A stretch of DNA of 32,000 bases from contig CP012986.1 in NCBI GenBank assembly GCA_001761425.1, forward strand, positions 720,001-752,000, written 5' to 3'. Below, in pieces: positions 542-32,000 of the stretch (position 1 is the first letter of the stretch; each line of letters begins with the position of its first letter). Position numbers and translations under genes: made by a program. The DNA is from Candidatus Saccharimonadota bacterium (GTDB lineage: Archaea; Nanohalarchaeota; Nanosalinia; Nanosalinales; Nanosalinaceae). The notes beneath the pieces are model-generated. The model saw only the letters and a program-made list of their open reading frames with translations, searched no databases and had not been told where the DNA came from.

Positions 542-559
542 AGAGGAGGTGAAAGGCCT

Positions 560-1429
560 ATGATGCTGGAAGATCAGATTAAATGGAACCGGCGTAAAAG
601 CTATGCATTACTCTTCATAGTTCCACTAATCCTTCTGGCGGTTATATTCGTCTTTGGAAGAGTTTTCGTACCGAGAATCAGCCCTTTCCTTATTCTCGCA
701 GCTGGATCAGGTATATCAGTTCTGTACGTGCTTTTCTCCTATTTCAAGAGCGATGAAATGATACTTGAGGTTGTGGGCGCAAAAGAAGCTTCCGAACAGG
801 AGTACAGCCAGCTTCATGATTTAATGGAAGGCCTTACTATCTCTTCCGGTATGTCCAAGCCTGATCTCTACATACAGGAAGATGACAGGATCAACGCGTT
901 CGCAACCGGTAGAAAACCAGAGGACGGGAAAGTCTGTGTGACAACCGGTGCACTGGAGAAACTGGACGAAGACGAACTCGAAGGAGTCCTGGCCCACGAA
1001 CTCTCACACATCAAAAACCAGGATATCATGTTCATGACAGTCGCAGTCGCACTGATCGGAGTCATCAGCATCATCAGCGAACTACTGCTCCACAGCATGT
1101 TCTTCGGAGTAGACGATGATGCACCACCATGGGCAATGGCAGCAGGCCTTTTACTCGCAATCCTCGCACCTATATCAGCGAGAATGGTACAGCTTGCCAT
1201 GTCAAGAAAAAGAGAATACCTGGCCGATGCTTCAGGCGCACAGATGACACGCTACCCGGAAGGCCTCGCATCAGCACTGGAAAAAATCCAGAACCAGAAA
1301 AACCCGAAGATGGATGTGAACAAAGCCGTCTCGCACCTGTACTTCTCAAATCCCTTCAAAAACAAGGCCTCTTTCTTCTCAACGCATCCACCGCTGGAGG
1401 AAAGAGTTGAAAGACTCCGCAACATGTAA
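560..1429 (+). CDS. htpX: M48 family zinc metalloprotease, HtpX-like
   Basis: HELSH zinc motif (LAHELSHIKNQD). N-terminal and central TM helices. C-terminal STHPPLEERV typical of HtpX. GGAGGTGA Shine-Dalgarno at 545-552, 7 nt before the ATG. Confidence 0.85.
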   Translation: MMLEDQIKWNRRKSYALLFIVPLILLAVIFVFGRVFVPRISPFLILAAGSGISVLYVLFSYFKSDEMILEVVGAKEASEQEYSQLHDLMEGLTISSGMSKPDLYIQEDDRINAFATGRKPEDGKVCVTTGALEKLDEDELEGVLAHELSHIKNQDIMFMTVAVALIGVISIISELLLHSMFFGVDDDAPPWAMAAGLLLAILAPISARMVQLAMSRKREYLADASGAQMTRYPEGLASALEKIQNQKNPKMDVNKAVSHLYFSNPFKNKASFFSTHPPLEERVERLRNM

Positions 1430-1436
1430 AAAAATT

Positions 1437-1862
1437 TTAGCTGAGGTTCTCTCTCAGGAGTCCCTGTGTGTATGCTCCCAGTAACATTCCTGCTATCGCC
1501 AAAAGAGCAGGAAAGTTCCCTATACCGATACTTGCGTATGCTGCTCCGGGACAGATCCCTGAAATACCCCATCCTACGCCGAATACGATACCGCCGAAGA
1601 CTACTCTTCTATCAAGGTCTTTAACGCGTTTTCCCAGTTTTTGACCTGTTATCAGAGCCTCTATGTTTCTCCTTACTGCGATTTCGAATAGAAGGCCTAC
1701 TGAAACAGCTCCTGTAAGCAGGAAAGCCAGTAACCCTAGGTCCTTGAGCTGGAGGAAGTTCAGAACTACTTCAGGCCTTGCCATCTGGCTCAGGGCCAGT
1801 CCCAGGCCGAAAAGCATTCCGCCGGTGATGTAGACTGCGTTCAGCTTCCGGCTTTTTTTCAT
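1437..1862 (-). CDS. YeeE/YedE family (sulfur-compound transport-like) membrane protein, second half-size gene
   Basis: The hydrophobic protein starts at MKKSRKLNAVYITGGMLFGLGL and contains GWGISGICPG. I chose the start at 1862 because it gives an ATGA overlap with the upstream gene. The 61-aa N-terminal extension in the ORF track is Arg-rich and implausible. Confidence 0.6.
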   Translation of the reverse strand: MKKSRKLNAVYITGGMLFGLGLALSQMARPEVVLNFLQLKDLGLLAFLLTGAVSVGLLFEIAVRRNIEALITGQKLGKRVKDLDRRVVFGGIVFGVGWGISGICPGAAYASIGIGNFPALLAIAGMLLGAYTQGLLRENLS

Positions 1863-2317
1863 GGAGTTACCCCCAGTGCCTGTACGGTCAGTGCTGTGAT
1901 GATTGCGGTGAAGAGGAAGAAAACAAAGTTGACTATCGAGGCCTTTGACAGCGATCCTATCCCGTTCATACCGTGTCCTGAGGTACAGCCTTTGCCGAAC
2001 CTCGTGCCGAAGCCTACAAGTATTCCGCCTACGAGAAGCCTCCATAGACTTACATCTGTCCTCCAGAGGCCTTCCTGGTAAAAAACTGCGTAGAGAGAAG
2101 CACCGAGAACGATTCCTGCGGTGAAGAGAATCCTCCAGACCCTGGAACTTTCCCTGAAAACCTCTCTATCGGATACAAAAGAGATTGCTGTTTCAAGAAA
2201 GGTCGAAGCACCAGGTATTCTAGAGGAAATGATATAGATCAGGGCTATACCCGAAGCCAGAAGCAAAGCTCCGGTCACATACCTGTAAAGGCCCAGAGGG
2301 AACAGAGATTCAATCAT
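1859..2317 (-). CDS. YeeE/YedE family (sulfur-compound transport-like) membrane protein, first half-size gene
   Basis: Multi-TM protein with GFGTRFGKGCTSGHG, the conserved Cys loop of YeeE/YedE (PF04143-type) proteins. Its stop overlaps the next start (ATGA at 1859-1862). Confidence 0.7.
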   Translation of the reverse strand: MIESLFPLGLYRYVTGALLLASGIALIYIISSRIPGASTFLETAISFVSDREVFRESSRVWRILFTAGIVLGASLYAVFYQEGLWRTDVSLWRLLVGGILVGFGTRFGKGCTSGHGMNGIGSLSKASIVNFVFFLFTAIITALTVQALGVTP

Positions 2318-2325
2318 GTATCAAA

Positions 2326-2339
2326 ACCTGGATCCAGGT
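2326..2339. promoter_or_regulatory. Perfect 14-bp palindrome ACCTGGATCCAGGT between a TATA-like box and the YeeE/YedE start
   Basis: Read directly. The palindrome lies 9-22 nt upstream of the minus-strand ATG (2315-2317). On the minus strand CTATTTTTA sits immediately upstream of it. Confidence 0.35.
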
Positions 2340-2487
2340 AAAAATAGTGACTCGCCGAATAAAAAACCGGATAAAGGCCTCTGACCTGAGATAAAGTTTT
2401 AATCTATCCACGGACAGAAAAATGTCAGGAGAGAAAAGCATAGACCAGATCGAGTACAGAGAAACCAGTTAGCTGAGGCCTCTACAA

Positions 2488-2874
2488 TTGTTTTTTAACA
2501 CTTTCAGTTCAACAAAGTTATCAGTGAATATAGAAGATATCACAGATGAAATCCTGGAGGAAACGGATTACCTGGAATCAGCGACAACCGGTTACCCACG
2601 CTACACCGAAGATGAGGCCTTGAACGCTGCGGAGGCCCTAGAAAGCAGTGAAGACATCCAGATGCTGGAAGAACTCGGGAATGGAAAAGGCCTCTATGAC
2701 ATCTACACCGAAGGTATAGGACAGAACCTTGACAGGTTGGATGATGCAGAGCTGATTGAACGGCCTGAAACAGGACAGGAATTTGTAAAACTTACACGTC
2801 TTTCACAGACCTACTTGCAGTACTACAGGAAGGTTCAAAGACTGGACAACTCTTTAGAACCCGCTCAACAGTAA
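2488..2874 (+). CDS. Hypothetical acidic protein (start uncertain, TTG in the ORF track)
   Basis: Open frame of 128 codons with an acidic composition like its neighbours. No motif recognised. The first codon is TTG. Confidence 0.4.
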   Translation: MFFNTFSSTKLSVNIEDITDEILEETDYLESATTGYPRYTEDEALNAAEALESSEDIQMLEELGNGKGLYDIYTEGIGQNLDRLDDAELIERPETGQEFVKLTRLSQTYLQYYRKVQRLDNSLEPAQQ

Positions 2875-2894
2875 ACTACCGCCAGCGATTCCTT

Positions 2895-3425
2895 TCATCC
2901 GCTGAAACCTCTTTCACCGCGTGAAGGATAAACCGATTCCCTGTCAACACCAACGTAAAGGCCTATCACATCCCTCAGATATCTCTGCTCCCCGGACTCA
3001 TCAAGTATTTCAGCCTCCTCATCCAGCGTCATCCTCAAACCCGAGGCCTCATTCTCCACCTGGGAAACATTTTCCAGAGAAGGACTGTTCCTGTTAAGAT
3101 AATCAACCATTTCATCGACAGAATCCGGCATTTTGACGACAGAATCTGTCCTGTAATTAACATCTATACTCCCATCAGGCCTTCCAGAAACACTGATCCT
3201 TCCTTTATCGCCTTCATACTCCGCCCGGAGATCCCACCAAGAATCACCGGCAGAGACATCAAAATCCCAGCCATAACTCACAACCTGGCGGGCCTCCTCA
3301 TGAATACTGGAAAAACTTTGGACCATATCACCACGAAGACCTACCGCATCATCAACACCCATATCAACATCATACAAATCAAGGCCTACCTTCTCTCCCT
3401 GAAACAGATCATCTCCTCTGAACAT
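2895..3425 (-). CDS. Hypothetical acidic protein
   Basis: 176-codon ORF with an ATG start, acidic composition and several AGGCCT copies, as in native genes. No motif recognised. Confidence 0.5.
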   Translation of the reverse strand: MFRGDDLFQGEKVGLDLYDVDMGVDDAVGLRGDMVQSFSSIHEEARQVVSYGWDFDVSAGDSWWDLRAEYEGDKGRISVSGRPDGSIDVNYRTDSVVKMPDSVDEMVDYLNRNSPSLENVSQVENEASGLRMTLDEEAEILDESGEQRYLRDVIGLYVGVDRESVYPSRGERGFSG

Positions 3426-3536
3426 AAGTAAAGAATAGGCCTGAAAATTTACAAACCAATTTCAAAAATTCTAGCTACCAACAATCTCTTTCTACTATTT
3501 CAACAAATTCATTATACTTTGGAGTAATCAGTAAAT

Positions 3537-3692
3537 ATGAGCAATTCCGAAGATAACTTTTGGAAAAAAGCTATCGGAGCAGCCGGTTTAGGAGGACTAG
3601 CTTATCTATTGTCTACACAGAAATGTCAAAGTTGTGGAAAGAGAAATCCTAATGAAAATAATAGGTGTTCTAACTGTGGTGCCTGGCTGTGA
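3537..3692 (+). CDS. Small (51 aa) membrane-anchored zinc-ribbon protein, below the ORF-track cutoff
   Basis: Manual translation gives MSNSEDNFWKKAIGAAGLGGLAYLLSTQKCQSCGKRNPNENNRCSNCGAWL*. It has one hydrophobic helix and a CxxC-x11-CxxC motif. The TGA stop overlaps the next ATG (TGATG at 3690-3694). Confidence 0.45.
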   Translation: MSNSEDNFWKKAIGAAGLGGLAYLLSTQKCQSCGKRNPNENNRCSNCGAWL

Positions 3693-4042
3693 TGAGCTAC
3701 ATCAAAGAAGTCCTACAGATATCTGATGTGGAATTCTGGAAGGAAATAAAGGCGAACTGGAATCATGGGAGCATGAAAGATCAGATGTTTTTCTGCCTTT
3801 TTCTAGTTCCTTTGTTAGGATTTCTAATATTTTACGAAAATAGTTTGACGAAAGTGCAGGCTTATTTCACCGGAGGAATTCTGACGGTTATTTTCATCTC
3901 AATTTTGAACACCTGGGCTTTTGCCAAGGTAGAATATGAAAAAAGAAATTATCGATGTCCTAATTGTGGAAATCCAATGGAGCATAGGTTAACTGAGGAC
4001 CACAATTGCCAATCGAAGCAATCAAAATCTGGCGTGTCCTAA
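3692..4042 (+). CDS. Small membrane protein with a C-terminal CxxC/H...C zinc-finger-like tail
   Basis: Two to three hydrophobic helices followed by YRCPNCGNPMEHRLTEDHNC. I prefer ATG 3692, since the track start 3689 is GTG. Confidence 0.5.
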   Translation: MSYIKEVLQISDVEFWKEIKANWNHGSMKDQMFFCLFLVPLLGFLIFYENSLTKVQAYFTGGILTVIFISILNTWAFAKVEYEKRNYRCPNCGNPMEHRLTEDHNCQSKQSKSGVS

Positions 4043-4534
4043 CTCTCCCTCTAGTTGTTCAACTCTTTTCTCTAACCTCCGTATTTTATCCTCTAACTTG
4101 TCAACCTGAGACTCCAGGGGATCAAAATTATTACTACCGAAACTTCCGAAGACCTCATCTTTAGTGTTCTCAACTTCACTCTGAGTTCTCTCAACCTCTA
4201 CTTTAGTACTTTGAACCTCACTCCTAGTTTGACCAATTTCGTCTTTGGCATCTTCAATCTCTTCATAAGCTTCTTCAATTTCCTCCTCTCTTCTCTCTAT
4301 CTCATCTTGTACATGCATGATGTCATTTTTAGTAAATCCAATACTCTTTTCTGTAAGATAAACTCCTAAAATATCAAGTAATGTCCCTAAGGTAAACAGG
4401 AATCCTCCAATAACCATCTTATTAGGAAAAAACCCAACGGTTGAGATTGCAATCAAAAGCGTACCCGTCACGAAAAAGCCTTTCTTGAAAGGAATTATCT
4501 TTTCCCAGGTACTCCTTTCAACTTTATTATTCAT
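4022..4534 (-). CDS. Membrane-anchored coiled-coil protein with internal approx 11-aa repeats
   Basis: The N-terminus carries two TM helices. It is followed by EEIEEAYEEIEDAKDEIGQTRSEVQSTKVEVERTQSEVENTKDEV and then a heptad-like C-terminus. The repeats are also visible in the DNA. The gene overlaps 3692..4042 convergently by 21 nt. Confidence 0.5.
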   Translation of the reverse strand: MNNKVERSTWEKIIPFKKGFFVTGTLLIAISTVGFFPNKMVIGGFLFTLGTLLDILGVYLTEKSIGFTKNDIMHVQDEIERREEEIEEAYEEIEDAKDEIGQTRSEVQSTKVEVERTQSEVENTKDEVFGSFGSNNFDPLESQVDKLEDKIRRLEKRVEQLEGELGHARF

Positions 4535-4585
4535 CTGAACGTATAAAGAAATGCTACAGGAACCTTTTAGTTTTTAATCTCAATT

Positions 4586-5827
4586 TCATAGGATTTTATC
4601 GAACGGATCATCGTCGTCATCTTCGAGATACGAGTCCAGTTCAATGTTTTTCTCGATTTTCCTTTCGTTTCCTCCACTCTTGAGACCTCCAGAATCAAAT
4701 CCGAAGTCCATCGGGCGACTGTCCTCAAGAGTGACAGAACCATCCTTAACCTGTACAGTCAGGTCCGGTTCAGGCCTTCCATTGAACTCTCGGACTGTCG
4801 GCACGTAGACACTTCCTCTCTCCTCATAACCGGATCTAGCATCAACTTCCGGTGCCTGAGCATCTACCACGGGAGGTGTGACACCGAAGCTGTCCCAGGT
4901 GTTGAGATCGATTTCTACATCTCCTTCCCAGACCTGGATAGTTCCACGAAGCTCGGGATCCTCAACGGTAACTGAGCCATCGGGAACCTTGACATAGACC
5001 TCATTATCCCTCTGAACTTTTGAATCTCCCAATAGAGATACCCGTAAAATTCCTTCATCCTGCTCCGCTCTCGGAACAGCTTGGAAATCCTGATCGCTTT
5101 TATCTTCAACAAAGGTAAGATCTCCATGTGCAGTAATATCAGTTAACTCCTCTTCAACAAGATCAGGATACTTCTCACCACTGCTGATGTAACCCATTCC
5201 GCCACGAACATTTATCGCATCCTCAACCCGCTGTCTGCGGTCTTCGAAACGATCTCTGACAGAATCGCGAAGCTCCTGCTCTTCCACATCTCTTCCCAGG
5301 GCCTCGGCCTTCAACAACTCCAGCTCAACCCTGTTATCAACTTTTTCATCAAGATCAGAAGGCCTCCTATCCTGAAGCTCCTGATAACGCTCAAAATAAT
5401 CATTTCCACGAGCCTCATCCGCATCCTTCAAAGCCTCCTCCATTCTCTGTTGCTCCATCTTACCGCGGAAACGACCATACATCAATTTTTCAAGGCCTGA
5501 AACACGCTCATCTAATACACCTCCGTCAAAGAAATCCTCGGCTTCCTGCCACTCCTGATACTCATCCATATCCACGAAATCCGGCTCCTCCAAGGCCTCA
5601 CCAGTCAAGATATCTCTTACCTGCCTAATAGTCTTGTAAGCGGCAGCATCACCATTTTTAGCATCAGGATGATAACGGCCCATCAAATCGCGGGCGGCAT
5701 TACGAACCTGATCCTCAGAGGCCTCATAGTCAAGCCCCAACATATCATACAGATCCTCCTCATCCTCAGCACCCATAAAATCTCCAGTAAAAGTTATCGC
5801 GTTATGCTGAGGAACCAGATCAGTCAT
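4586..5827 (-). CDS. J-domain (DnaJ-like) protein with a long acidic, non-DnaJ C-terminal region
   Basis: DLYDMLGLDYEASEDQVRNAARDLMGRYHPDAKNGD is a J domain with an HPD motif. There is no Cys-rich DnaJ zinc-finger region. I chose ATG at 5827, since the track start 5833 is GTG. Confidence 0.7.
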   Translation of the reverse strand: MTDLVPQHNAITFTGDFMGAEDEEDLYDMLGLDYEASEDQVRNAARDLMGRYHPDAKNGDAAAYKTIRQVRDILTGEALEEPDFVDMDEYQEWQEAEDFFDGGVLDERVSGLEKLMYGRFRGKMEQQRMEEALKDADEARGNDYFERYQELQDRRPSDLDEKVDNRVELELLKAEALGRDVEEQELRDSVRDRFEDRRQRVEDAINVRGGMGYISSGEKYPDLVEEELTDITAHGDLTFVEDKSDQDFQAVPRAEQDEGILRVSLLGDSKVQRDNEVYVKVPDGSVTVEDPELRGTIQVWEGDVEIDLNTWDSFGVTPPVVDAQAPEVDARSGYEERGSVYVPTVREFNGRPEPDLTVQVKDGSVTLEDSRPMDFGFDSGGLKSGGNERKIEKNIELDSYLEDDDDDPFDKIL

Positions 5828-5904
5828 ATTCACGAATTAGTGACAAAAAATTAAATATTTCTTGAAGAACTCAAGAGATACATTAGTCCAGAGGAACTGA
5901 TAGT

Positions 5905-6258
5905 TTACTTTCTGACCTTCTCTATCTCAACCTGCTCCTCACCATGTCTCTCCAGGTATTTTTCTGCGATATCCTCCCAGCTCTCCTCAAGTTTGTTCCA
6001 GGTCTCCCAGAAATCCCATTCTATGTACTCCACTCTTGTAGGAGGCCTTTCATAGAACTTGTCAAAGTGAATTCCGTTATGTTCTTCCTTATAATCTACT
6101 CTTGCTACATTGATCTTTTCCTCATCTCCATTTCTGTCGTAACTTCTGAAAAAAATATTGATGGAGTAATCATCAGGATTATCCTCTGGCGGCTTCCGAG
6201 GCCTCCAGAAAATCTTCTTATCTAGAACCTCTCCAAGCTCGAAAGAGTTTCCTGCCAC
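5905..6258 (-). CDS. Hypothetical protein (GTG start)
   Basis: 117-codon ORF. The stretch ARVDYKEEHNGIHFDKFY faintly resembles small DUF6516/TumE-like proteins, but I cannot verify that. Confidence 0.4.
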   Translation of the reverse strand: MAGNSFELGEVLDKKIFWRPRKPPEDNPDDYSINIFFRSYDRNGDEEKINVARVDYKEEHNGIHFDKFYERPPTRVEYIEWDFWETWNKLEESWEDIAEKYLERHGEEQVEIEKVRK

Positions 6259-6315
6259 GCATGTTTTCCAGGGAACAAGATTTTAAAGTGTTCGCATCAA
6301 GTGTTAACGTGTTGT

Positions 6316-6344
6316 ATGGTCCACCCGGGACTCGAACCCGGGAC
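6316..6344 (-). repeat. 29-bp direct repeat: orphan copy of the tRNA-Ile 3' end (T-arm plus acceptor)
   Basis: ATGGTCCACCCGGGACTCGAACCCGGGAC at 6316-6344 is identical to 7125-7153. Identity stops on both sides. Confidence 0.9.
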
Positions 6345-6377
6345 TGGGCTTTGCACCCCTCCCAGGTGAAAATCAAG

Positions 6378-6731
6378 ATGAAAACTAAGAGCACGAAGCC
6401 AGAAGAATCGCCCAGTTTCGAGGACTACAACGATTTTATGAAGTTCCTCACAAAGTCGGGAGTAGAAGATATACTTGTACTGAAAAGAGACACCTTCAGA
6501 GACGTAACCACGCCGAAAAGGACAGAAATAATCGAAACGATCCAGAAAGAAGAAATCTCTTCAATCAGAGACCTCTCAAGAAAACTTGACAGAAAAGTCA
6601 GCGCAGTACACAAAGACCTTGAAGTACTCTACGAAAGCAACGTCATCGACTTCAGAAAGGAAAAAGAAAGCAAGATACCAGAAATAAAACACCAAAATAT
6701 TCTACCAGAACCGCTCGTCTACAACGACTGA
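6378..6731 (+). CDS. Winged-helix DNA-binding protein (HVO_A0114-like/MarR-like wHTH)
   Basis: ISSIRDLSRKLDRKVSAVHKDLEVLYESNVIDFRKEKESKIPEIKHQNILPEPL matches the small archaeal wHTH pattern. AGGTGA Shine-Dalgarno at 6364-6369, 8 nt before ATG 6378. The track start 6261 reads through the tRNA fragment and is rejected. Confidence 0.55.
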   Translation: MKTKSTKPEESPSFEDYNDFMKFLTKSGVEDILVLKRDTFRDVTTPKRTEIIETIQKEEISSIRDLSRKLDRKVSAVHKDLEVLYESNVIDFRKEKESKIPEIKHQNILPEPLVYND

Positions 6732-6782
6732 AACCCAAAAAAATGAACACATGTGCACAGGCTGTACCGCCAATGGGATAAA

Positions 6783-6950
6783 CTAGAAAGCCTCCTGTTT
6801 CTGCTCCGAGTTATCATTTGACTCTCTTATTGCCCTGACAGTAAATAGTACAGGTTTAAACAGAAGTTTGAGTTTCCTTCTACGCTCTCTTTTTCTCTCC
6901 TCAGCCTTTTTACCTAACTGATATCCAATAAACAACTTCCCCAATCCCAT
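6783..6950 (-). CDS. Possible 55-aa strongly basic small protein (below the ORF-track cutoff)
   Basis: Manual translation gives MGLGKLFIGYQLGKKAEERKRERRRKLKLLFKPVLFTVRAIRESNDNSEQKQEAF*. No obvious Shine-Dalgarno. Its basic composition contrasts with the acidic proteome. Confidence 0.2.
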   Translation of the reverse strand: MGLGKLFIGYQLGKKAEERKRERRRKLKLLFKPVLFTVRAIRESNDNSEQKQEAF

Positions 6951-7125
6951 AAAGAGGAAATTTTGCTAAAATGTTAAATCGCTAAGTTCTGTAGATGGCC
7001 TTCATAACTCTGACAAGCATGGCCAAAACCATCATAATCTAATTTCGAGCCTTTGGCTGTTCTAAACATCGGAGCCTTGGACCAGATTCGCCCTGGTTCT
7101 CAAGTTCAATAACACAATACACAGA

Positions 7126-7326
7126 TGGTCCACCCGGGACTCGAACCCGGGACCACCGCCTCTCTTAGGCAGACGAGCTGAGCTCGTCACAGCCCGTGAT
7201 AAAACGGGTCTGTATTGCCAACTGCTGCTGGCAGTTGAGGCAGTCACACAGGCCTTTTTTCAGGCAAGTTTTTTCTGTGTGAATGTCCGTATAAGGACGG
7301 CGCTCTAACCACTGAGCTAGTGGACC
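7126..7326 (-). tRNA. tRNA-Ile, anticodon UAU, with an intron at the canonical 37/38 position
   Basis: Folded by hand. Acceptor GGTCCAC/GTGGACC (7 bp). D arm GCTC-AGTGGTTA-GAGC. Anticodon stem CCGTC/GGCGG with one G-U pair. Loop CU-UAU-A with the intron after position 37, followed by A38. Variable loop TGGTC. T arm CCGGG-TTCGAGT-CCCGG. Discriminator A. CCA is not encoded. Exon 1 is 7290-7326 and exon 2 is 7126-7161. Confidence 0.8.
7162..7289 (-). other. tRNA intron, 128 nt, four internal hairpins
   Basis: Anticodon-loop CUUA pairs with intron UAAG just before the 3' splice site, forming the central 4-bp helix of a bulge-helix-bulge with 3-nt bulges at both junctions. Hairpins on plus-strand coordinates are 7172-7188 (7 bp), 7193-7208 (5 bp), 7219-7237 (7 bp) and 7245-7281 (7 bp with a 23-nt loop containing AGGCCT). 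Confidence 0.7.
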
Positions 7327-7466
7327 CAACGAAGATTCGTTGGAGTGATCAGAACGCTCGCTGACGCGAACGTACTTCGTAACCAGTTGCAGTCGGAGGC
7401 CTTGTGGGCCTTGTTCATCCTGCGTATCTACGGTTTAAAGGTGTAATTTGAAAAAGGCTTTTATTT

Positions 7467-8249: not shown

Positions 8250-8403
8250 ATCTTTGGTTGAGGCCTCTTCTGTTTTGTTTCCACCGGTTTCTGTTATACT
8301 TTTAAGCTTTCCAGAGGCATTGTTCTGTATAAACTAAAGAGGTTTCTCAAATGACGAAAATTACGAATTTTCTTGACACAGAAAACAGAGGTGTTTTCGA
8401 GTA

Positions 8404-9114
8404 ATGCAGATGACTAATCAGCAACAGCAGCAGTACGACCGTGGGGCAACGATTTTCTCTCCTGATGGACGTTTGTTCCAGGTTGAGTACGCTAAAGAAG
8501 CAGTTAAAAAAGGTGCTACAGCTCTAGGAGTGGTCTACGAGGACGGAGTGGTTCTTGCAGCTACACGGAATATTCCAGATCTCCAGGTCAGGAATCCTGA
8601 GAAAGTTTTCAAGATAGACAGTCATATCGGAGTCGCGACCTCAGGCCTTGTAGCAGACGGCAGAACACTTGTAGAAGAAGCGAGGAATGAAGCACAGAAG
8701 CATATGATGACTTACGATGAGGATATCCCTACTCCTGTGCTTGCGAAGTTCATCGCTGACAGATGTCAGCAGTTCACTCAGTACGGAGGAGTCAGGCCTT
8801 ACGGTCTCTCCACGATCTCCGGCGGTGTCAAGGACGGAGTTTCCAAGGTCTACCATACTGATCCTTCTGGAACTCTCTCAGAATGGAAGGCTATCGCCAT
8901 CGGTAAAGGCGGAGATGAAGCCAAGGAACACCTGGAGGAGAACTGGGAGGAAGGCCTCTCAGAGGAAGATGCAATGGAGCTTGCTGTTGAAGCCCTGGAG
9001 AAGGGAGAGGAAGACATCGGTACAGAAAACGTTGAAATGTCTGTAGTCGATGAGGAATCTCTTTTCAGGCGTGTCAGCCCTGAAGATCTTGAAGACCTGA
9101 GTGTCGACCTCTAG
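8404..9114 (+). CDS. psmA: Proteasome subunit alpha
   Basis: YDRGATIFSPDGRLFQVEYAKEAVKKGATALGV is the canonical alpha-subunit N-terminus. AGAGGTG Shine-Dalgarno lies about 10 nt upstream. Confidence 0.95.
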   Translation: MQMTNQQQQQYDRGATIFSPDGRLFQVEYAKEAVKKGATALGVVYEDGVVLAATRNIPDLQVRNPEKVFKIDSHIGVATSGLVADGRTLVEEARNEAQKHMMTYDEDIPTPVLAKFIADRCQQFTQYGGVRPYGLSTISGGVKDGVSKVYHTDPSGTLSEWKAIAIGKGGDEAKEHLEENWEEGLSEEDAMELAVEALEKGEEDIGTENVEMSVVDEESLFRRVSPEDLEDLSVDL

Positions 9115-9157
9115 ACCAACAGGTTTCTTATTCACATATTTTCCTTTTAATTAATAG

Positions 9158-9466
9158 ATGATAGAAGACCTTCTCATAGCTTCAGGCCTTCTTATAACTG
9201 CCTATCTTGCCTGGGAGTTCCAGAAAGGATGGATCGGAAACGAGTACCGGTCAACTACCTTTCTGAAGCTGAACAGGAAAAAGACCACCCTGGTGTTCGG
9301 ACTGGCGTTCCTCGGTTCACTATCGGTTTTCGCAGGAACAGTCTTCACAGGGCTTGGAAAAGAAGTTATGAGAAGTTTTGCATTCGATACAGGCCTCCTG
9401 TTTTACATGCTGTTTTTCTTCCTTTTGAACAGGCTTGCAGGAGGTGGTAGAAAATGGCTTCGATGA
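9158..9466 (+). CDS. Hypothetical membrane protein
   Basis: 102 codons with three hydrophobic segments. Contains AGGCCT copies like native DNA. Confidence 0.45.
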   Translation: MIEDLLIASGLLITAYLAWEFQKGWIGNEYRSTTFLKLNRKKTTLVFGLAFLGSLSVFAGTVFTGLGKEVMRSFAFDTGLLFYMLFFFLLNRLAGGGRKWLR

Positions 9467-9825: not shown

Positions 9826-9865
9826 CAGGATAACAGGTTTAAAGAAAAAGGCCTTTTCTTAGGTT

Positions 9866-15149: not shown

Positions 15150-15168
15150 AAGGCCTGTAGAAGGCCTT
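15150..15168. terminator. Bidirectional hairpin made of two AGGCCT copies, flanked by T-runs on both strands
   Basis: AAGGCCT-gtaga-AGGCCTT forms a 7-bp stem. TTTTTT follows on the plus strand at about 15181-15186. On the minus strand TTTTTT (complement of 15144-15149) follows. It sits between convergent sepF and the zinc-ribbon gene. Confidence 0.55.
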
Positions 15169-21808: not shown

Positions 21809-21811
21809 GTG

Positions 21812-21838
21812 AGGCCTTTAGGTAGGCCTTCTTTTTTT
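21812..21838 (+). terminator. AGGCCT-ttaggt-AGGCCT hairpin followed by a T-run
   Basis: Two AGGCCT copies (21812, 21824) form a 6-bp stem. TCTTTTTTT follows on the plus strand. Confidence 0.4.
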
Positions 21839-23714: not shown

Positions 23715-23808
23715 AATATCGTTCTCTTGTGTTTAGCTGTAAAGTATCGTGTTGAACTGTTGAGATAGGAAAATTAGGGGGAGAAGAAAGGGAAGTAAGG
23801 ATATCAGT

Positions 23809-24465: not shown

Positions 24466-24558
24466 AATAGTATCACGCTCTCCAGAAAAATCTGTGAGCC
24501 AAAAAAATCCAACTCCTGTAGAACAAAAAGGCCTCTTCAACTTTAAATAGGTGACTTC

Positions 24559-25836: not shown

Positions 25837-26050
25837 AACAAAGGTCGGGGGACTGAACTTTAATAGGGTCTTGGCAGTCAAGCCTGGAGGCCTCAGGTGG
25901 TCTATGCGTTTCCTTTAAATTAGTTGTTGAACTAGGGTTAAAGTATGCGCCATGCATCAACCAAGGGTGGACGCGTTCTACCCGGGAAGGTACGCATCTA
26001 AGTTTTCAAAACCTGTAGTTAATACTGAATTCTTCTCTGAGTGGTACTGA

Positions 26051-27787
26051 ATGTCAGCTGACAGCAGTGAGGGCCTTGTGTACAGTGAGGTTCTTGAAGA
26101 GTTTACCGAGGATTTTGCCTCGAACTTTGAGGATAACACTGCTCCGACGGGAATGGGGATAGAGTCAGAGATCCCTAATGTCAGAGCAGAGGACGGTATC
26201 ATGCCGCTCGCCGACCAGTATCAGGGCATTATCAGTGAAGGCCTCTGGGAAAGTATTGAGGAGGAACTTGAGGAAAACGTTGAGGGATACGGCGAGGACT
26301 TCAGCTTCGAGTTCGAAGGAGTCAAGGAGAAAGGCCATTTCGAGGATATGCCAGCAGAGATGAATATCGGGATCGCTGAAAGCCCGGATGAAGTGATTGA
26401 TACCCCTGCGGTTGACTGGGAGATAGGGCCTCAGATCGAGAACGATTCAGGTGCTTTTCAGATCGATGGAACCGGTAATTTCGGTACTCTTCTTGATGTA
26501 CTTGAATCTGTGAAAGCAGGTACCCGGAAGTACATGGCCCAGAATCATCCAGAGATTGTTCCTGCGGATCAGGGCCTTACAAGACAGTTCCGTGAACCAG
26601 GAGAGGTTCCTGACGAGGTCGAAAGACTTGATGGTGAAGGCCAGAGAGATGTAGTCAAAAGAGGTGTAGGACAGGATTATGGCCGGGATGAGGCCCTGGA
26701 GTTTATCGAAAATTTCTACGATCATTTCAGTTCTATCGAGTACTGTGCGGATTATATCGGTACTATCTTCGGCCCTCAGATAATGGAGAACATGTTTGGA
26801 GGTTCGACGCAGCTTACGTCAGGCCTCTGGCATGAAGGTGATGAAGAGATAGATCTTGATGAGCGGGTCAGCGAGGAGATGGCGTACAGGATTATATTCG
26901 AAGCAGGTTTCGACGCGCTCGCATCTAACGTCTACGAAGAAGAGGAAGGAATACCTGAGAGAAAGGTAGGAGTGAACCAGGATTACTGGGAGGCCTCGGC
27001 CTATGCTCAGCATTTCCTTGACGATGCGGATGTCGATGAGGATGCTCTTGGCCGCACAGGAACTCCATGGGAAATGATCCAGACAGTGGTTGAAGAGGAT
27101 GAATCCTTCCAGGCGATGGTTGATCATTACATGACAGAGCACAACATGGCCTGGATAACACCTCCGGAGGAAGAACACGTAGAGTTCGAGGATGGAACTC
27201 CTGAAGGATTCGATTACGAAAGTGTTGCCTTGCTTGCTGTAGACCCTGATAATCCAAAGACTCCGAGAGAATACATCGAAGACGATGAGGTAAAGTTCTC
27301 CAAAGTCGTCAGCGATGAGGAAGGAGGCTTTGAAAAGGTCACCGGAACAGTTGATCTCTCCAGCATGGACGAGGAATCAGCAAAGCAGTATCACAAGGCC
27401 AACTTCTCCCAGGTTCATATCGGAGGGATGCACCACGATGTAAGGCCTAAATTTAGCACTGGAGGTTTCGAGTACAGGAATGCACGCCAGAACTACGATG
27501 CCGAGCCTAGCGTTGCGATCGCCAAGGCCTCAGTTATGCCTCACGGAGATAAAATCGTAGACGTGATGCAGGATTACGGTATTGATCCTATGGATCCTGA
27601 GACTGTTCCCGACTACGATGACAAAGAGGCCTGGACTGAGATCTTCAGCGAGGTATACGATGATGAAGTAGTAGAGACTGCTGAAGAGATGGCACCGGCT
27701 TACGTGGACGAGTTCCAGACCTATGTACAGAAAAGGCTTTCAGATCCCTCGGAAATCATGAGCGGTATCGACCAGACAAAGGTATGA
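26051..27787 (+). CDS. Large acidic protein with divergent carboxylate-amine ligase (GCS2/YbdK-like) motifs, paralogue 1
   Basis: GMGIESEI (GxExE). WEIGPQIENDSG (xQIE). FGGSTQLTSG in place of the GxHVHVG box. HDVRPKFSTGGFEYRNAR, compare WDIRPSPHFGTVEVRVMD in E. coli YbdK as I recall it. Confidence 0.45.
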   Translation: MSADSSEGLVYSEVLEEFTEDFASNFEDNTAPTGMGIESEIPNVRAEDGIMPLADQYQGIISEGLWESIEEELEENVEGYGEDFSFEFEGVKEKGHFEDMPAEMNIGIAESPDEVIDTPAVDWEIGPQIENDSGAFQIDGTGNFGTLLDVLESVKAGTRKYMAQNHPEIVPADQGLTRQFREPGEVPDEVERLDGEGQRDVVKRGVGQDYGRDEALEFIENFYDHFSSIEYCADYIGTIFGPQIMENMFGGSTQLTSGLWHEGDEEIDLDERVSEEMAYRIIFEAGFDALASNVYEEEEGIPERKVGVNQDYWEASAYAQHFLDDADVDEDALGRTGTPWEMIQTVVEEDESFQAMVDHYMTEHNMAWITPPEEEHVEFEDGTPEGFDYESVALLAVDPDNPKTPREYIEDDEVKFSKVVSDEEGGFEKVTGTVDLSSMDEESAKQYHKANFSQVHIGGMHHDVRPKFSTGGFEYRNARQNYDAEPSVAIAKASVMPHGDKIVDVMQDYGIDPMDPETVPDYDDKEAWTEIFSEVYDDEVVETAEEMAPAYVDEFQTYVQKRLSDPSEIMSGIDQTKV

Positions 27788-27812
27788 GGCCTCCAGGCCT
27801 CTCCCAACCCCT

Positions 27813-27838
27813 GGTTTCTCCCCCGGAGCCTAGAAACC
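27813..27838 (+). terminator. Inverted repeat GGTTTCT-12 nt-AGAAACC downstream of 26051..27787
   Basis: 7-bp stem read directly. Only TTT follows, so terminator function is uncertain. Confidence 0.25.
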
Positions 27839-28064
27839 TTTAAAAACGTTAAAGGCCGAAGTAAGTTTAAGATGTCACTGACTGACCACGAAAACATTTC
27901 AGCAGATGGTTTGGTCAGTCTTATCGCTATCATTATTATCTCAATTATTGTATAGAGAGGCCTAACCCCTGAAACGGAGTGTAGAAGCGGGACGGGCCTC
28001 AGAGGAAAAATTAACTTAGTCCAGTTTCTACGCTCCACCAGAACAACTCGGTGGAACAAAAAGT

Positions 28065-29987
28065 ATGTCGGCAAGCACTAAACAAACGCAGCAAAACGTG
28101 AAACAGTCCCTCAGCTCTACCTGGGACCAAAACCATAGAGAAAACAGCATCTACAACGTCGGAGCAGAGGTAGAGGACCTCCTCTTCCACAGGAACAGGG
28201 AACCGGTGGACAACCAGATCACGGAGAGAGTTCTCAGGAATATCGTGGAGAAAGAGGATGCTGAGGCCAAGGAACAGGTTATCGACGGCGAAAAAAGACT
28301 TCTTGGCACGAAATTAGAAGATAAAAGATTCCAGAAACACGAGGACTTCGCTGCGGAGATAGATACTGATTACCATCCTGCTCAAAGCGAGATCGCAACC
28401 GAGGTATTCCAGAACCCTGCCGACATGGCCTTCAGGACAGAGAACCTCCGCTACCTGAGAGACAGGAACCTTCCCGACAAAGTATCAAGCCACAAAATCG
28501 GAATGTTCCCGGACATGTCACTGCTACAAAAAGATCCTGAACACCTGGCAAGGCCTAAAAAGCGTTACAAAGGCCTTAGTTCCAGGCACGGAGAGGCCTT
28601 CGGCTCGATGGGATGGATCGGTGCCACACAGTTGAATACAGGAAGCCCGGCAGGTGAGGAGATGAGGACGGAAGAGTTTTTCCACAGCTTCTTTGACGGA
28701 GGAGAACAGCCTTCAATGCTTGATGTAGTCCCGGCTGTAGATCCTCTGTTCGCCTCGGATCCTGTCTTCGAAAAAAACGATGATTTATATGAGACGGTCG
28801 CGGAAGGCGGAAGAGACATGGTTTATGACCTGTTCGTCTCTAAATCTCCTGCAGTTTTAAGAAGAGGTACAGAACGCTGGGGAGATGTACTCGACGAAGC
28901 CCTGCCGACCAACGAAAACTACGGATACATAGAAGATTTGAGAGGCCTCGAAGATCAGGAAGACTACCTTGATATGGCTATGGAAAGGCCTATGATTCTT
29001 TCACCGGAGATAGATGCTTCAGATGTCGAAGTACTTGATCCTGAGACCCGTGAACCGGTCGGGAGCTTCGAAGACGTATACGGCGAGGATTCTACATGGG
29101 TGATGCCAGGCCTCTCAGAGGTTGAGGAGTCAACAGTCACTTTCGAGCAGTTCCTGGAGGACGAGATGTACCTGGGAGAAGTTCTTGTAGATGGAGAGAT
29201 GAAGCCGGTGAAAGTCGATCACAGCGACATGGAAGATGAGGAATTCACCGAGCTGGCAGGCCTCGGTCCTGAAGACGGAGCAGGTTACTTCAATTTCCAC
29301 AACACTTTTGTCAGGCCTGATGTGGCTCCGAAGAACAACGGAGTCGTCGAGTTCCGTTCTTTCTCCAACAGCGACAGGAGCTACGAGGCCTTGCTGACCC
29401 AGAACAGTTTGATGCATGTCTACCAGGATGTGCAGGAGCTTTTCGCAGGTCATGGTTTGACAAGTGATAATTCCCTGGAGTTCCGTGAGGATGCGAAGCG
29501 TAGAGGCCTTGATGCCGAGCTTCCTTCGGGAAGTACGGTTCAGAGCGTATATGAGAATGAGCTTGTGGATGTTCTATCTGAAGGTGTCAGGGAGAGCTTT
29601 TCCGGCGAGACTCCTTACTCCATGGAGGTTGTACTTGAAGGCGCGGATAGTTACGATGACTTCGGCGATTATCTTCAAACAGAGTTCAACGATCTCTCCG
29701 ATTTCGCCGAGTATACCGCGGTCGCGTTCGAAACCGGTGTAAGGCCTGAACCCGGCGAATATTCAGGTGAAGAGCACCGTGAAGAACAGGAGAAGTTCGT
29801 GGACTGGTTTGTAGATACCTACAGAGAAACCATGCATGAGTACCTGGAAGATGAGTTCAAAGGAGACAGCTACGACACGAGAAACTTCCAGACAGAGTCG
29901 AAGAAGCTTGAAAAAGCTGTTAACGAGGGAGGCCTCAAGAAGATGCTTGAAGTCACAGCAAGGCCTGAAACCGGAGAGGCAAGATAG
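28065..29987 (+). CDS. Large acidic protein with divergent carboxylate-amine ligase (GCS2/YbdK-like) motifs, paralogue 2
   Basis: NVGAEVEDLL (GxExE). HPAQSEIATEVFQNP. KIGMFP. IGATQLNTG in place of GxHVHVG. FVRPDVAPKNNGVVEFRSFSNSD. Motif order is the same as in 26051..27787. Confidence 0.5.
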   Translation: MSASTKQTQQNVKQSLSSTWDQNHRENSIYNVGAEVEDLLFHRNREPVDNQITERVLRNIVEKEDAEAKEQVIDGEKRLLGTKLEDKRFQKHEDFAAEIDTDYHPAQSEIATEVFQNPADMAFRTENLRYLRDRNLPDKVSSHKIGMFPDMSLLQKDPEHLARPKKRYKGLSSRHGEAFGSMGWIGATQLNTGSPAGEEMRTEEFFHSFFDGGEQPSMLDVVPAVDPLFASDPVFEKNDDLYETVAEGGRDMVYDLFVSKSPAVLRRGTERWGDVLDEALPTNENYGYIEDLRGLEDQEDYLDMAMERPMILSPEIDASDVEVLDPETREPVGSFEDVYGEDSTWVMPGLSEVEESTVTFEQFLEDEMYLGEVLVDGEMKPVKVDHSDMEDEEFTELAGLGPEDGAGYFNFHNTFVRPDVAPKNNGVVEFRSFSNSDRSYEALLTQNSLMHVYQDVQELFAGHGLTSDNSLEFREDAKRRGLDAELPSGSTVQSVYENELVDVLSEGVRESFSGETPYSMEVVLEGADSYDDFGDYLQTEFNDLSDFAEYTAVAFETGVRPEPGEYSGEEHREEQEKFVDWFVDTYRETMHEYLEDEFKGDSYDTRNFQTESKKLEKAVNEGGLKKMLEVTARPETGEAR

Positions 29988-29988
29988 G

Positions 29989-31107
29989 ATGAAGACAGAA
30001 GAACTGGCAAAAGAACTGATGAAGTACGAGACAGTTTCACCAATCGAAAACCCGGATGCATTCCAGTTCCTGAAAGGAGTACTGGAGGACGAGGGAATAA
30101 ACGCAGAGATCAGGGAGATAAACGGCGTCTACAACCTTGTAGCAGAGACCGGAGATCCTGAAGCAGAAGAATCAGTCTGTCTCAACGGCCACATGGACGT
30201 AGTGGAACCAGAGGGAGAATGGAGCATCACAGAACCGTTTGAACCCGTAGAGGAAAACGGAAAGCTCTACGGCAGGGGAGCAGCCGATATGAAAGGTGCG
30301 CTAGCCGCCCAGACCAAGGCCTTCATCGATCTACACCGCGACAGCGAGTTCAACGGCCGGGCAGTACTGATGGCAGTAGGAGACGAAGAGATCGGAGGAT
30401 TCGACGGCTCCAAGGTACTGGCAAACGAATACAGCGAAAAAGGAAAGGGCTTCGACCATGTGATAGTCGGAGAACCAACAGACCTGGACTTACAGGTCGG
30501 AACAAGAGGCCTGTTCTGGGCAAACGTCTACCTGAAAGGAGAATCTGTTCATGCGACAAGGCCTCACCTCGCAGAGACGAATACAATGGAAAAACTGCCT
30601 GAAGCCCTGAAAAGACTGGGGAACCTGGAGATGAGCTTTGAAAACGATGGCCCTCTGCCTGATCCTTCCTCAGAGGTTACGATAGTCGAGTCAACCGATA
30701 CCTACAACAGTATCCCTGCCGAGGTCAAGATAGGCATGGATTTAAGGTATCTTCCAGGACAGAAAGTTGATGAAGTAGTCGAAGATATAGAAAACAGTCT
30801 TGAAGGCCTTGAAGTCGATGTCGAAGTTGAAGTTGAACAGGATCACGGCGGAGACTTCAAATTAGAGGATGAAAAGTTCAGAAACACTGCTTTCAATGTT
30901 CTAATAGAGGTCAGAGGTGAAGAACCGGAGCAGATTACTTCTGGAGGTGCCTCAGATGGGCGTTTCTTCTCGAACAATGGAACACCGTTCATAGAGCTGG
31001 GTGTCAACCAGGAATCAGTCCACGGCGAAAACGAGTACTGTACAGTAGATAACCTGAAGAAACTGAGAAAGGCCTACTTCGATATCAGTAAAAGAATGGC
31101 GGGGTAA
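29989..31107 (+). CDS. M20 family metallopeptidase/deacylase (ArgE/DapE-like)
   Basis: CLNGHMDVVEP, GRGAADMKG, GDEEIGG and GGASDG are M20 metal-binding and catalytic motifs. ATG 29989 lies 1 nt after the upstream stop. The track start 29836 overlaps the previous gene and is rejected. Confidence 0.75.
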   Translation: MKTEELAKELMKYETVSPIENPDAFQFLKGVLEDEGINAEIREINGVYNLVAETGDPEAEESVCLNGHMDVVEPEGEWSITEPFEPVEENGKLYGRGAADMKGALAAQTKAFIDLHRDSEFNGRAVLMAVGDEEIGGFDGSKVLANEYSEKGKGFDHVIVGEPTDLDLQVGTRGLFWANVYLKGESVHATRPHLAETNTMEKLPEALKRLGNLEMSFENDGPLPDPSSEVTIVESTDTYNSIPAEVKIGMDLRYLPGQKVDEVVEDIENSLEGLEVDVEVEVEQDHGGDFKLEDEKFRNTAFNVLIEVRGEEPEQITSGGASDGRFFSNNGTPFIELGVNQESVHGENEYCTVDNLKKLRKAYFDISKRMAG

Positions 31108-31205
31108 AAAATTTGTCTATCTCAGGCCTCTAGCTTTTTTTGCTTTCTGTTTAAAAAGTTTCGCGGATATCTTCTTGTTATAAAACGAGGGAGGTTTTTG
31201 GATTT

Positions 31206-32000
31206 ATGAAATTTTCAGATTTGACTATTTCGGAAAGTACAGTTTCTAGACTTGAGGAAAACGGTATTACAGAGCCTACAGAGGTTCAGGAAAAGGCCAT
31301 TCCAGAGGTTTTGAACGGGAAGGATCTTCTTGTGGAATCGGAGACAGGTTCAGGGAAGACTCTTGCGTTTTCACTGCCTATGATCGAAAATCTTGACCAT
31401 GAAAGCGGTGAGACAGAGGCCCTGGTACTTTCACCGACGCGTGAGCTGGCTAAACAGATCACCGCGGAGATAGAGATGGCTTCGGACAGTATCGATGCTG
31501 TCACGATTTATGGAGGCGTTGATTACGAGCCTCAGATCCAGGGTGCGAAGGAAGCGAATATAATCGTAGGTACGCCGGGAAGAGTCCTTGATCTGTTACA
31601 GCAGGGAAAGATTGATGTCTCGGATGTCGAATACTTCGTTCTTGACGAGGCAGACAGGATGCTGGACATGGGTTTCCAGGACGAACTGGAAGCCATCATT
31701 GACTTCCTGCCTGGGAAAAGAAAAAATCTACTGTTCGGAGCTACTATCCCGAGAGCACTGAAGAGAATGTGTGACAAATACAGTATAGATCCGGAGATCA
31801 TCCGTATCGAGCCAGGAGAACATACCGCAGAGCTTGAAGAGGCCTATATCAACGTCAAAAACAATAACAAGCTTTCCTACCTCTACACCTTCCTGAAAAA
31901 GAAAGATAGAGACCTGGCTATCGTCTTCTGCCAGACCAAGAACACGACACGCTGGTTAGCGGACAAACTGAGAAAAAACGGTATCAATGCACAGGAGATG
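31206..32000 (+). CDS. DEAD-box ATP-dependent RNA helicase (3' end runs off the window)
   Basis: Not in the ORF track because there is no stop inside the window. Manual translation shows a Q-motif region (TEPTEVQEKAIP), SETGSGKT, SPTRELA, GTPGR and VLDEADRMLDMGF. GGGAGG Shine-Dalgarno lies 9 nt upstream. Confidence 0.9.
   Translation, partial: MKFSDLTISESTVSRLEENGITEPTEVQEKAIPEVLNGKDLLVESETGSGKTLAFSLPMIENLDHESGETEALVLSPTRELAKQITAEIEMASDSIDAVTIYGGVDYEPQIQGAKEANIIVGTPGRVLDLLQQGKIDVSDVEYFVLDEADRMLDMGFQDELEAIIDFLPGKRKNLLFGATIPRALKRMCDKYSIDPEIIRIEPGEHTAELEEAYINVKNNNKLSYLYTFLKKKDRDLAIVFCQTKNTTRWLADKLRKNGINAQEM

Follow-up and report, generated by a model that had tools for sequence, protein, structure and literature searches.

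AGGCCT, a highly iterated palindrome of a nanohaloarchaeal lineage

Why should one six-base palindrome, AGGCCT, recur throughout a stretch of archaeal DNA at almost four copies per kilobase, and what kind of agent could have put it there? The stretch that raises this question (the window, 32 kb at full length) spans positions 726420-758419 of a 1,125,078-bp metagenome contig of the Joint Genome Institute (JGI); the contig (Ga0136257_100001, JGI 3300010222) is that of a nanohaloarchaeon (DPANN), a minute, salt-loving symbiont, and an identical Logan contig exists. The gene content is archaeal, including aCPSF1, the exosome subunits Rrp41/42, a digeranylgeranylglycerophospholipid reductase and the proteasome, and the closest named relatives are Candidatus Nanohalobium metagenome-assembled genomes (MAGs), with 92% identity in aCPSF1. 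We conclude that AGGCCT is a highly iterated palindrome (HIP) of this lineage.

Abundance, context and coding constraints

An exact search of the window located 126 copies of AGGCCT (3.9/kb), the first starting at 554 and the last lying at 31840-31845. The initial annotation of this DNA had counted about 126. The sites are listed below.

554..31845, no strand: dispersed AGGCCT array of 126 exact sites, 101 genic (both strands, three frames) and 25 in or straddling non-coding DNA
Start positions, part 1 of 3: 554, 829, 1144, 1261, 1365, 1693, 1773, 1939, 2067, 2375, 2476, 2615, 2688, 2959, 3044, 3177, 3382, 3437, 4772, 5360, 5493, 5593, 5719, 6043, 6199, 7250, 7397, 7485, 7645, 8164, 8261, 8643, 8794, 8952, 9184, 9391, 9504, 9566, 9849, 10313, 10383, 10674, 10716, 10881
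Start positions, part 2 of 3: 11245, 12079, 12600, 12702, 12739, 13783, 13955, 14297, 15151, 15162, 15761, 15909, 15993, 16154, 16441, 16772, 17333, 17801, 17952, 18271, 18375, 18752, 18828, 19320, 19380, 19424, 20266, 20575, 20757, 20815, 21381, 21478, 21812, 21824, 22450, 22699, 23179, 23374, 23464, 23538, 24050, 24101, 24281, 24395
Start positions, part 3 of 3: 24529, 24730, 24965, 24977, 25052, 25397, 25658, 25721, 25888, 26239, 26821, 26991, 27443, 27525, 27627, 27787, 27795, 27958, 28551, 28571, 28594, 28943, 28986, 29108, 29258, 29313, 29386, 29504, 29742, 29930, 29961, 30317, 30507, 30559, 30804, 31070, 31124, 31840

Dinucleotide-preserving shuffles of the window contained 7.64 copies on average (standard deviation 2.7, maximum 15), and Markov models of order 0 and 1 predict 6.8 and 7.2, which amounts to a 17-18-fold excess. 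The initial estimates (about 7 copies expected, an excess of about 18-fold, a G+C content of about 47%, here computed as 47.0%) were therefore accurate, as was the remark that this is the reverse of restriction-site avoidance. At orders 2, 3 and 4 the Markov expectation climbs to 20, 52 and 114, because AGGCC (146 copies) and GGCCT (147 copies) occur almost entirely as parts of AGGCCT. The hexamer is the commonest of the window, and the runners-up (AAGGCC, GGCCTT, GGCCTC and GAGGCC) overlap it. The sister palindromes CGGCCG, GGGCCC and TGGCCA occur 1, 0 and 2 times, in line with the 0-2 copies reported initially, and GGCC lacking the AGGCC half-site stands at about 0.4 of expectation, as estimated from counts. 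A general GGCC effect is ruled out: outside AGGCCT the tetramer is, if anything, under-represented, and it is about as rare in AGGCCT-rich as in AGGCCT-poor lineages (described below).

The sequence around the sites is random in composition beyond positions -1/+1 and holds no further information, with T scarce at -1, where it would give the stop codon TAG. With flanks of this kind, and with the motif absent from every repeat family detected, AGGCCT is a free-standing 6-mer; a longer repeat, whether a repetitive extragenic palindrome (REP) or a miniature inverted-repeat transposable element (MITE), is ruled out on these grounds and by the intragenic position of about 80% of the sites. Each 2-kb bin of the window holds 5-13 sites. 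Across a contiguous 50.5 kb, that is, the window ±10 kb rebuilt with 73 JGI gene calls, spacing is near-random (coefficient of variation 0.92), which rules out regular spacing, and pairs 8-12 nt apart occur. Within the window 66 sites lie in plus-strand genes, 35 in minus-strand genes and 25 in non-coding DNA, and all three frames are used on both strands. Both the two gene orientations and the three frame examples of the initial annotation were found as described: GAA GGC CTT (E-G-L) at 829, AAG GCC TCT (K-A-S) at 1365 and AGG CCT (R-P) at 8794.

Could such an array simply follow from composition, from codon usage or dipeptide content, or from a dispersed repeat of the REP or MITE kind? The frame counts lend themselves to this view, as 54 of 95 genic sites (rough open reading frame (ORF) calls) fall in the frame xxA-GGC-CTx, against 22 and 19 in the other two, and Gly-Leu is a common dipeptide. 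The nulls for genic sites, run on the rough ORF calls of the window and on the 50.5 kb, speak against it. Shuffling synonymous codons within genes, with proteins and codon usage kept, gave 14.7±3.4 sites in the window (maximum 25) where 95 are observed; shuffling codon order gave 7.4; and with the JGI gene calls over 50.5 kb the synonymous shuffle gave 28.2±4.8 (maximum 42) where 165 are observed, about 6-fold too few. The initial annotation had held codon or dipeptide bias to be insufficient and had pointed to a codon-preserving shuffle as the decisive comparison; neither version of that shuffle approached the observed count. Non-coding DNA (6.6 kb of the 50.5 kb, 40.5% G+C) carries 36 sites where about 0.9 are expected, a 37-fold enrichment or so, and its density exceeds that of genic DNA (5.5/kb vs 3.75/kb). 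With dinucleotide, codon-order and synonymous-codon shuffles all 6-18-fold short, with random flanks and a motif found in no repeat family, and with orthologues in poor lineages writing the same peptides with other codons, the by-product explanation is refuted and we grant it a negligible probability.

The codons themselves reveal what is being read. Glycine is encoded by GGC in 93% of cases inside the A|GGC|CT context and in 18-19% otherwise; arginine by AGG in 85% before proline and in 19-25% otherwise; proline by CCT in 91% after arginine and in 37-43% otherwise; and alanine by GCC in 77% of [K/E/Q]-Ala-[T-initial codon] contexts (phase 1), with a baseline of 19%. Five-of-six matches to AGGCCT are up only about 1.8-fold. 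As codon choice is cooperative across the hexamer while near-matches are raised so little, the pressure reads the whole hexamer in nucleic acid; it is no codon, dipeptide or composition effect.

Saturation extends to the encoded proteins. In the window AGGCCT is used for 81% of Arg-Pro dipeptides, 76% of compatible X-Gly-Leu and 44% of [KEQ]-Ala-[FLSYCW] tripeptides, and in pooled rich genomes it fills 60-79% of compatible peptide positions, as opposed to 3-10% in poor relatives. Compatible peptides are themselves more frequent in rich than in poor proteomes (15.1 vs 10.2 per 1000 amino acids), and the observed/expected ratio (O/E) of Gly-Leu is 1.45 vs 1.06. Synonymous sites, many amino-acid positions and intergenic DNA have all been driven towards AGGCCT, near saturation. 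No gene of the 50.5 kb is significantly under-filled, and genes free of sites have few or no compatible peptides; foreign-DNA islands are ruled out on the same evidence as the cause of the four site-free gaps exceeding 1 kb. Every potential site seems to be pushed towards AGGCCT independently of the rest, irrespective of what its gene does. The gene with most sites is the following.

28098..29987, plus strand: gene of 629 aa, function unknown, with 13 sites filling 13 of 14 compatible positions and including the cluster 28551, 28571, 28594

This protein and its large neighbour at 26051-27787 (578 aa) match nothing in Pfam, NCBIfam or PADLOC. Two overlapping genes of unknown function at 3692-4534 have a G+C content of 38% (47% overall) and no AGGCCT, and one of them shows weak coiled-coil matches to SMC-like defence proteins. 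These genes may be recently acquired; each has only one compatible position, so that the absence of sites proves little.

An on/off distribution among relatives

Is this state general among nanohaloarchaea? We compared AGGCCT density over 32 related loci, taken from two collections and including a few contigs that are represented twice, and obtained an essentially bimodal distribution, with rich loci at 2.2-4.4/kb and poor loci at 0.0-0.3/kb; three loci are intermediate, at 0.5, 0.7 and 1.0/kb, and the B1-Br10_U2g21/LFCJ01 lineage is of this intermediate kind. The rich loci comprise this contig, three Nanohalobium-labelled MAGs (DAL-WCL_22_76C1R, 66C1R and 75C1R), the complete isolate genome of Ca. 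Nanosalina sp. VS9-1 (NZ_CP180230.1), PL-Br10_U2g27 and several ENA and JGI contigs, while the poor ones are the remaining loci, among them Ca. Nanosalina sp. J07AB43 (GL982576), CAZSAB01 and JBEQAY01. In the other rich loci, too, AGGCCT ranks first among hexamers or among palindromes, and the poor loci show no enrichment of any alternate palindrome. Since richness recurs in independent JGI, Logan, ENA and GenBank assemblies and in a complete isolate genome, it is no assembly artefact.

In a neighbour-joining tree of aCPSF1 and a proteasome subunit (479 columns) the rich lineages form at least four groups interleaved with poor ones, with support of 75-100% at most informative nodes and 58% at one. 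Orthologous columns have AGGCCT in rich genomes and AGGTCT, AGGACT, CGGTCT or similar in poor ones, for the same peptide. The force operates in some nanohaloarchaeal lineages and is switched off in others closely related to them.

Conservation of individual sites, which the initial annotation had suggested following in orthologue alignments, is high: rich-rich pairs with about 78% DNA identity have 70-73% of their AGGCCT sites in common, vs 24-27% of other hexamers. This is the observation on which direct selection would build, according to which the sites bind a nucleoid, segregation, replication or chromatin protein, or act as a self-mark protecting the cell's own DNA, density being the selected trait; Xu et al. 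used the same argument for HIP1 (PMC5861425). Amino-acid changes tolerated to create sites would also fit. Where the peptide is compatible in both rich genomes, however, joint occupancy was 32 against 28.2 expected from the product of fill fractions, and 13 against 12.8 in a second comparison. The sharing is therefore at about the level expected from independent saturation and does not discriminate the latter from sites inherited under selection. Direct selection is further burdened by the near-random spacing with pairs 8-12 nt apart, by the fact that a density-dependent function needs no 60-79% saturation, and by sister lineages that live without the motif and intermediate lineages that conserve sites no better than background. 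We regard it as rather improbable.

One clade contains the rich locus L148 together with the intermediate L154 and L155, and in it 7-9% of AGGCCT sites are common vs 19-21% of other hexamers. In an alignment of L008 and L014 (the same contigs as L148 and L154), seven of the nine sites of the intermediate genome are also present in the rich one, and the single-step differences consist of 10 transitions vs 3 transversions. From these alignments, the intermediate lineages of this clade look as if they had lost the force in part or altogether and their sites were decaying.

Three side observations concern the same loci. GATATC (the EcoRV site) is mildly over-represented in the 50.5 kb (26 vs 10 expected, z about 5) and also ranks among the top palindromes of several AGGCCT-rich loci. 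GGCC is under-represented in the poor contigs L145, L146, L147, L006 and L007 (O/E 0.39-0.72, first-order model), as if these faced GGCC-directed restriction, and outside AGGCCT it is equally rare in rich lineages. L007 (JBLGBK010000008.1), titled as a 'Colwellia polaris' MAG, has nanohaloarchaeal aCPSF1, proteasome and exosome genes with 64-83% identity to the window, and looks mis-binned.

Candidate agents

The force is strong and directional, and what it acts on is the DNA itself and the hexamer as a whole. The target being a perfect 6-bp palindrome, the agent would be a symmetric, sequence-specific protein that recognises double-stranded DNA; the patchy distribution, gained and lost like a single gene, suggests that its gene is mobile or easily lost, encoded by some lineages and missing in others. 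The best candidate would be an AGGCCT-specific (StuI-type) DNA methyltransferase. Coupled to a repair or recombination process that favours the methylatable or methylated allele, such an enzyme could act as a ratchet, whereby site-creating changes would be fixed and site-destroying ones reverted, site by site, and abundance would largely be a by-product of molecular drive with no selection on each site. We favour this explanation because type II systems for AGGCCT exist and because alternate HIPs of cyanobacteria co-occur with a cognate methyltransferase and share the bias of deviants to outer positions. Indeed, a type II restriction-modification (R-M) system specific for AGGCCT, with N4-methylcytosine (m4C) on both strands (AgGCcT), is documented in Alcanivorax (PMC12128166), and the alternate cyanobacterial 6-mer HIPs each co-occur with a methyltransferase of the same specificity (Elhai 2015, PMC4390886). 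The 1-nt deviants of cyanobacterial HIPs are biased to outer positions, and Elhai proposed a methyl-directed repair ratchet (PMC4390886). A methyltransferase coupled to biased repair or recombination is thus the best explanation we can offer, tentatively and with the enzyme as a candidate only.

Several points weigh against it. No methyltransferase, Vsr or restriction gene was found by Pfam annotation and PADLOC in the window ±10 kb (52 kb), so that the StuI-type enzyme which the initial annotation had proposed looking for in the genome was not encountered in that part of the contig; PADLOC on ten unannotated proteins returned weak coiled-coil matches only. In 545 kb of nanohaloarchaeal loci, motif patterns and tblastn, the latter with the L130 methylase (see below) and M.HaeIII as queries, gave no methyltransferase except ORFs with an NPPY motif in the poor contigs L145 and L146; a weak match in L147 proved spurious by Pfam scan. 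The chemistry known from AGGCCT systems, m4C, makes no T:G mismatches, R-M systems normally cause site avoidance and no enrichment, and the drive model would have to assume methyl-directed mismatch repair in these archaea.

One-off neighbours of AGGCCT belong to the same side of the balance. They are not clearly depleted in rich genomes (rich/poor 0.77-1.0), and T-for-C neighbours show no deficit, with rich/poor ratios of 0.94 for AGGTCT/AGACCT and 0.77 for AGGCTT/AAGCCT and a window O/E of 0.8-1.6. A signature of very-short-patch repair (T:G to C:G), which predicts depletion of these neighbours, is therefore not seen. On the favourable side, variants at outer positions are raised, the bias known from cyanobacterial HIPs (rich/poor 3.2 for GGGCCT/AGGCCC and 1.67 for TGGCCT/AGGCCA), while those at inner positions range from 0.77 to 1.25; the outer-position bias partly reflects codon constraints. 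[quoted passage not shown]

Two further sources bear on methylation. Papers on the SVXNc nanohaloarchaeal methylome describe GDGcHC methylation only, along with a pair of Dcm-like genes, just one of them linked to a motif, and do not mention AGGCCT. The unrelated viral contig L130 (IMG/VR, 65% G+C) has 24 dispersed AGGCCT vs 4.6 expected, and its ORF 4971-6710 encodes a DNA methylase of the C-5 cytosine type (Pfam PF00145); enrichment and a methyltransferase thus occur together in this one, anecdotal case. When viral contigs were scanned for clusters of three AGGCCT, most of the matches listed were chance clusters or tandem repeats.

The non-coding sites bring in a second agent. About 16 of 36 non-coding sites in the 50.5 kb lie 30 nt or less downstream of a stop codon (counted from listed distances), non-coding AGGCCT tends to sit 5-28 nt after stop codons, and divergent promoter spacers also hold sites. 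Two of the close pairs form hairpins, AGGCCT being self-complementary, and individual non-coding copies occupy conspicuous positions.

15150..15168, minus strand: AGGCCT pair 15151/15162, 11 nt apart, between convergent genes; 7-bp hairpin, then a T-run on the minus strand; terminator-like scan AAGGCCTTCTACAGGCCTT + TTTTTCAC
21811..21830, plus strand: AGGCCT pair 21812/21824, 12 nt apart, just 3' of the end of the aCPSF1 gene; hairpin, then CTTTTTTT; terminator-like scan GAGGCCTTTAGGTAGGCCTT + CTTTTTTTAG
27787..27800, no strand: AGGCCT pair 8 nt apart, the first copy beginning with the third stop-codon base of the 578-aa gene
554..559, plus strand: AGGCCT exactly between the Shine-Dalgarno-like GGAGGTGA and the ATG of an HtpX-like gene; sequence ggaggtgaaAGGCCTatg
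9845..9858, no strand: AGGCCT as part of GAAAAGGCCTTTTC, a perfect palindrome of 14 bp; intergenic spacer of 40 nt
7250..7255, no strand: AGGCCT in the 128-nt intron of tRNA-Ile(UAU), complement 7126-7326

A DNA-uptake or kin-recognition signal would be a motif bound by an import or recombination component, whose carrying alleles are preferred and spread by molecular drive, as with the DNA uptake sequence (DUS) and uptake signal sequence (USS) of Neisseria and Pasteurellaceae. Known uptake sequences show terminator-like hairpin pairs and a shifted proteome. Here, too, the proteome is shifted, sites accumulate independently in coding and non-coding DNA, non-coding sites favour the 5-28 nt past stop codons, and two inverted pairs make terminator-like hairpins just past genes; the two pairs with T-runs, like the enriched Gly-Leu and other compatible peptides, are nonetheless also expected under any strong drive. 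The preprint cited above ties HIP1 to uptake and transformation (10.64898/2026.06.24.733823). Set against these points, known uptake sequences are 9-12 nt long and non-palindromic, a 6-mer confers little specificity, and no competence or uptake genes were seen; we know of none in nanohaloarchaea. The sharp on/off state of one and the same motif in interleaved lineages is also easier to reconcile with a mobile gene for an enzyme than with core uptake machinery. An uptake signal is, in our view, unlikely though worth keeping in sight.

A related and more doubtful notion is that AGGCCT could tag the DNA of a DPANN ectosymbiont for self-identity or exchange, as a dense, methylated palindrome that would separate its own or kin DNA from imported or degraded DNA of the haloarchaeal host, or direct uptake or recombination of kin DNA. 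If true, Archaea would gain their first described sequence for uptake or kin recognition, with the on/off lineages as natural knock-outs.

An RNA-level motif, with AGGCCU recognised in transcripts, for example in processing or decay, could draw on the transcription of nearly the whole window, on the many non-coding sites directly past stop codons and on the site inside a tRNA intron. A transcript signal gives no reason for a perfect palindrome (64 of 4096 hexamers are palindromic), the sites are equal in genes of both orientations and present in divergent promoter spacers, and no Rfam family match was obtained; we consider this reading very improbable.

The intron-bearing tRNA-Ile(UAU) (7126-7326, minus strand) was detected by ARAGORN with introns allowed, while default ARAGORN and Rfam missed it, Rfam giving no family match in the window. 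A UAU anticodon for isoleucine is uncommon. An exact 29-nt direct repeat (6316-6344 and 7125-7153) copies the 3' end of this tRNA about 780 nt downstream of the gene, and resembles the att duplication left by an integrated element. ARAGORN also reported a doubtful intron-bearing 'tRNA-Asp' at 6317-6524, inside an HVO_A0114-like gene (6261-6731). The stretch 6204-7250 contains no AGGCCT.

Significance and comparison with known systems

In the open-access literature, full-text search returned no paper that mentions both Nanohaloarchaea and AGGCCT, and general searches for over-representation of AGGCCT returned nothing relevant. To our knowledge, the function and origin of HIPs have stayed open for some 30 years and have been studied almost only in cyanobacteria. 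The AGGCCT array offers an independent case in another domain of life and in genomes of about 1 Mb, with a stronger signal, namely near-saturated compatible positions and a reshaped proteome. Close relatives in which the motif is on, off or apparently decaying constitute a natural experiment: a survey of which genes are present and which absent, over a few dozen genomes of this small size, should indicate the gene or genes responsible, and the contrast would test methyltransferase-linked biased repair against uptake or a selected function. Furthermore, the density of AGGCCT provides a sharp signature by which these DPANN genomes can be binned and foreign DNA within them recognised, and StuI is predicted either to shred AGGCCT-rich DNA or to leave it uncut, according to its methylation.

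Among known systems, REP and MITE elements differ from the array in that AGGCCT has no conserved sequence tens of nucleotides beyond its core and about 80% of its sites are intragenic. Very-short-patch repair by Dcm/Vsr in E. coli, with its excess of CCWGG and deficit of CTWGG, provides a known case in which a repair bias linked to a methyltransferase makes the methylated site more frequent. That effect is less than 2-fold, however, whereas the AGGCCT excess is about 18-fold and the predicted deficit of T-containing neighbours is absent.

The DUS and USS are present in thousands of copies of 9-12 nt, asymmetric, at about 1/kb, and are tied to known competence machinery. They are like AGGCCT in occurring in genes and spacers and in the plausibility of molecular drive; paired copies that form terminator-like hairpins past genes and over-represented encoded peptides are seen in both, but would be expected under any strong drive. 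AGGCCT differs in being a 6-bp perfect palindrome rather than an asymmetric 9-12-nt core.

StuI-type R-M, as in Alcanivorax borkumensis SK2 (AgGCcT, m4C), has the very recognition sequence seen here, which demonstrates that proteins reading exactly the AGGCCT palindrome and methylating both strands exist (PMC12128166). The SK2 genome contains 1674 AGGCCT in all, and no excess has been described (PMC12128166). The targets of such systems are normally avoided and not enriched as here, and no such gene was found in the nanohaloarchaeal loci scanned.

The closest counterpart is the cyanobacterial HIP, represented by HIP1 (GCGATCGC) and the alternates GGCGCC, rCCGGy and GCsGC (Elhai 2015, PMC4390886; Xu et al. 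2018, PMC5861425). The initial annotation had likened the array to HIP1 or to uptake sequences, and every cyanobacterial HIP feature that could be tested is displayed by AGGCCT. It is a short, G+C-rich, perfect palindrome with a central GC and the commonest word of its length in the window; it is at least 15-fold over-represented and above about 1 site/kb (17-18-fold and 3.9/kb); it occurs in all frames, on both strands and in non-coding DNA, outside longer repeats; its presence or absence is sporadic among related genomes; its one-nt deviants are biased to outer positions; and its positions are conserved between rich genomes above background, which alone is no proof of selection. For HIP1 a periodicity of 10-90 kb has been reported, the AGGCCT spacing having been read here over 50.5 kb only. 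The differences are that the host is an archaeon (DPANN, Nanohaloarchaeota), that the core is GGCC with A/T flanks, that no cognate methyltransferase such as those of the alternate HIPs was seen in 52 kb of this contig, that saturation of compatible positions reaches 60-79% and the proteome is measurably shifted, and that density reaches about 3.6-4.4/kb where most HIPs lie at 0.5-2.5/kb (Elhai, PMC4390886). AGGCCT is thus an unusually dense HIP and, as far as we have found, the first outside cyanobacteria and the first in Archaea.

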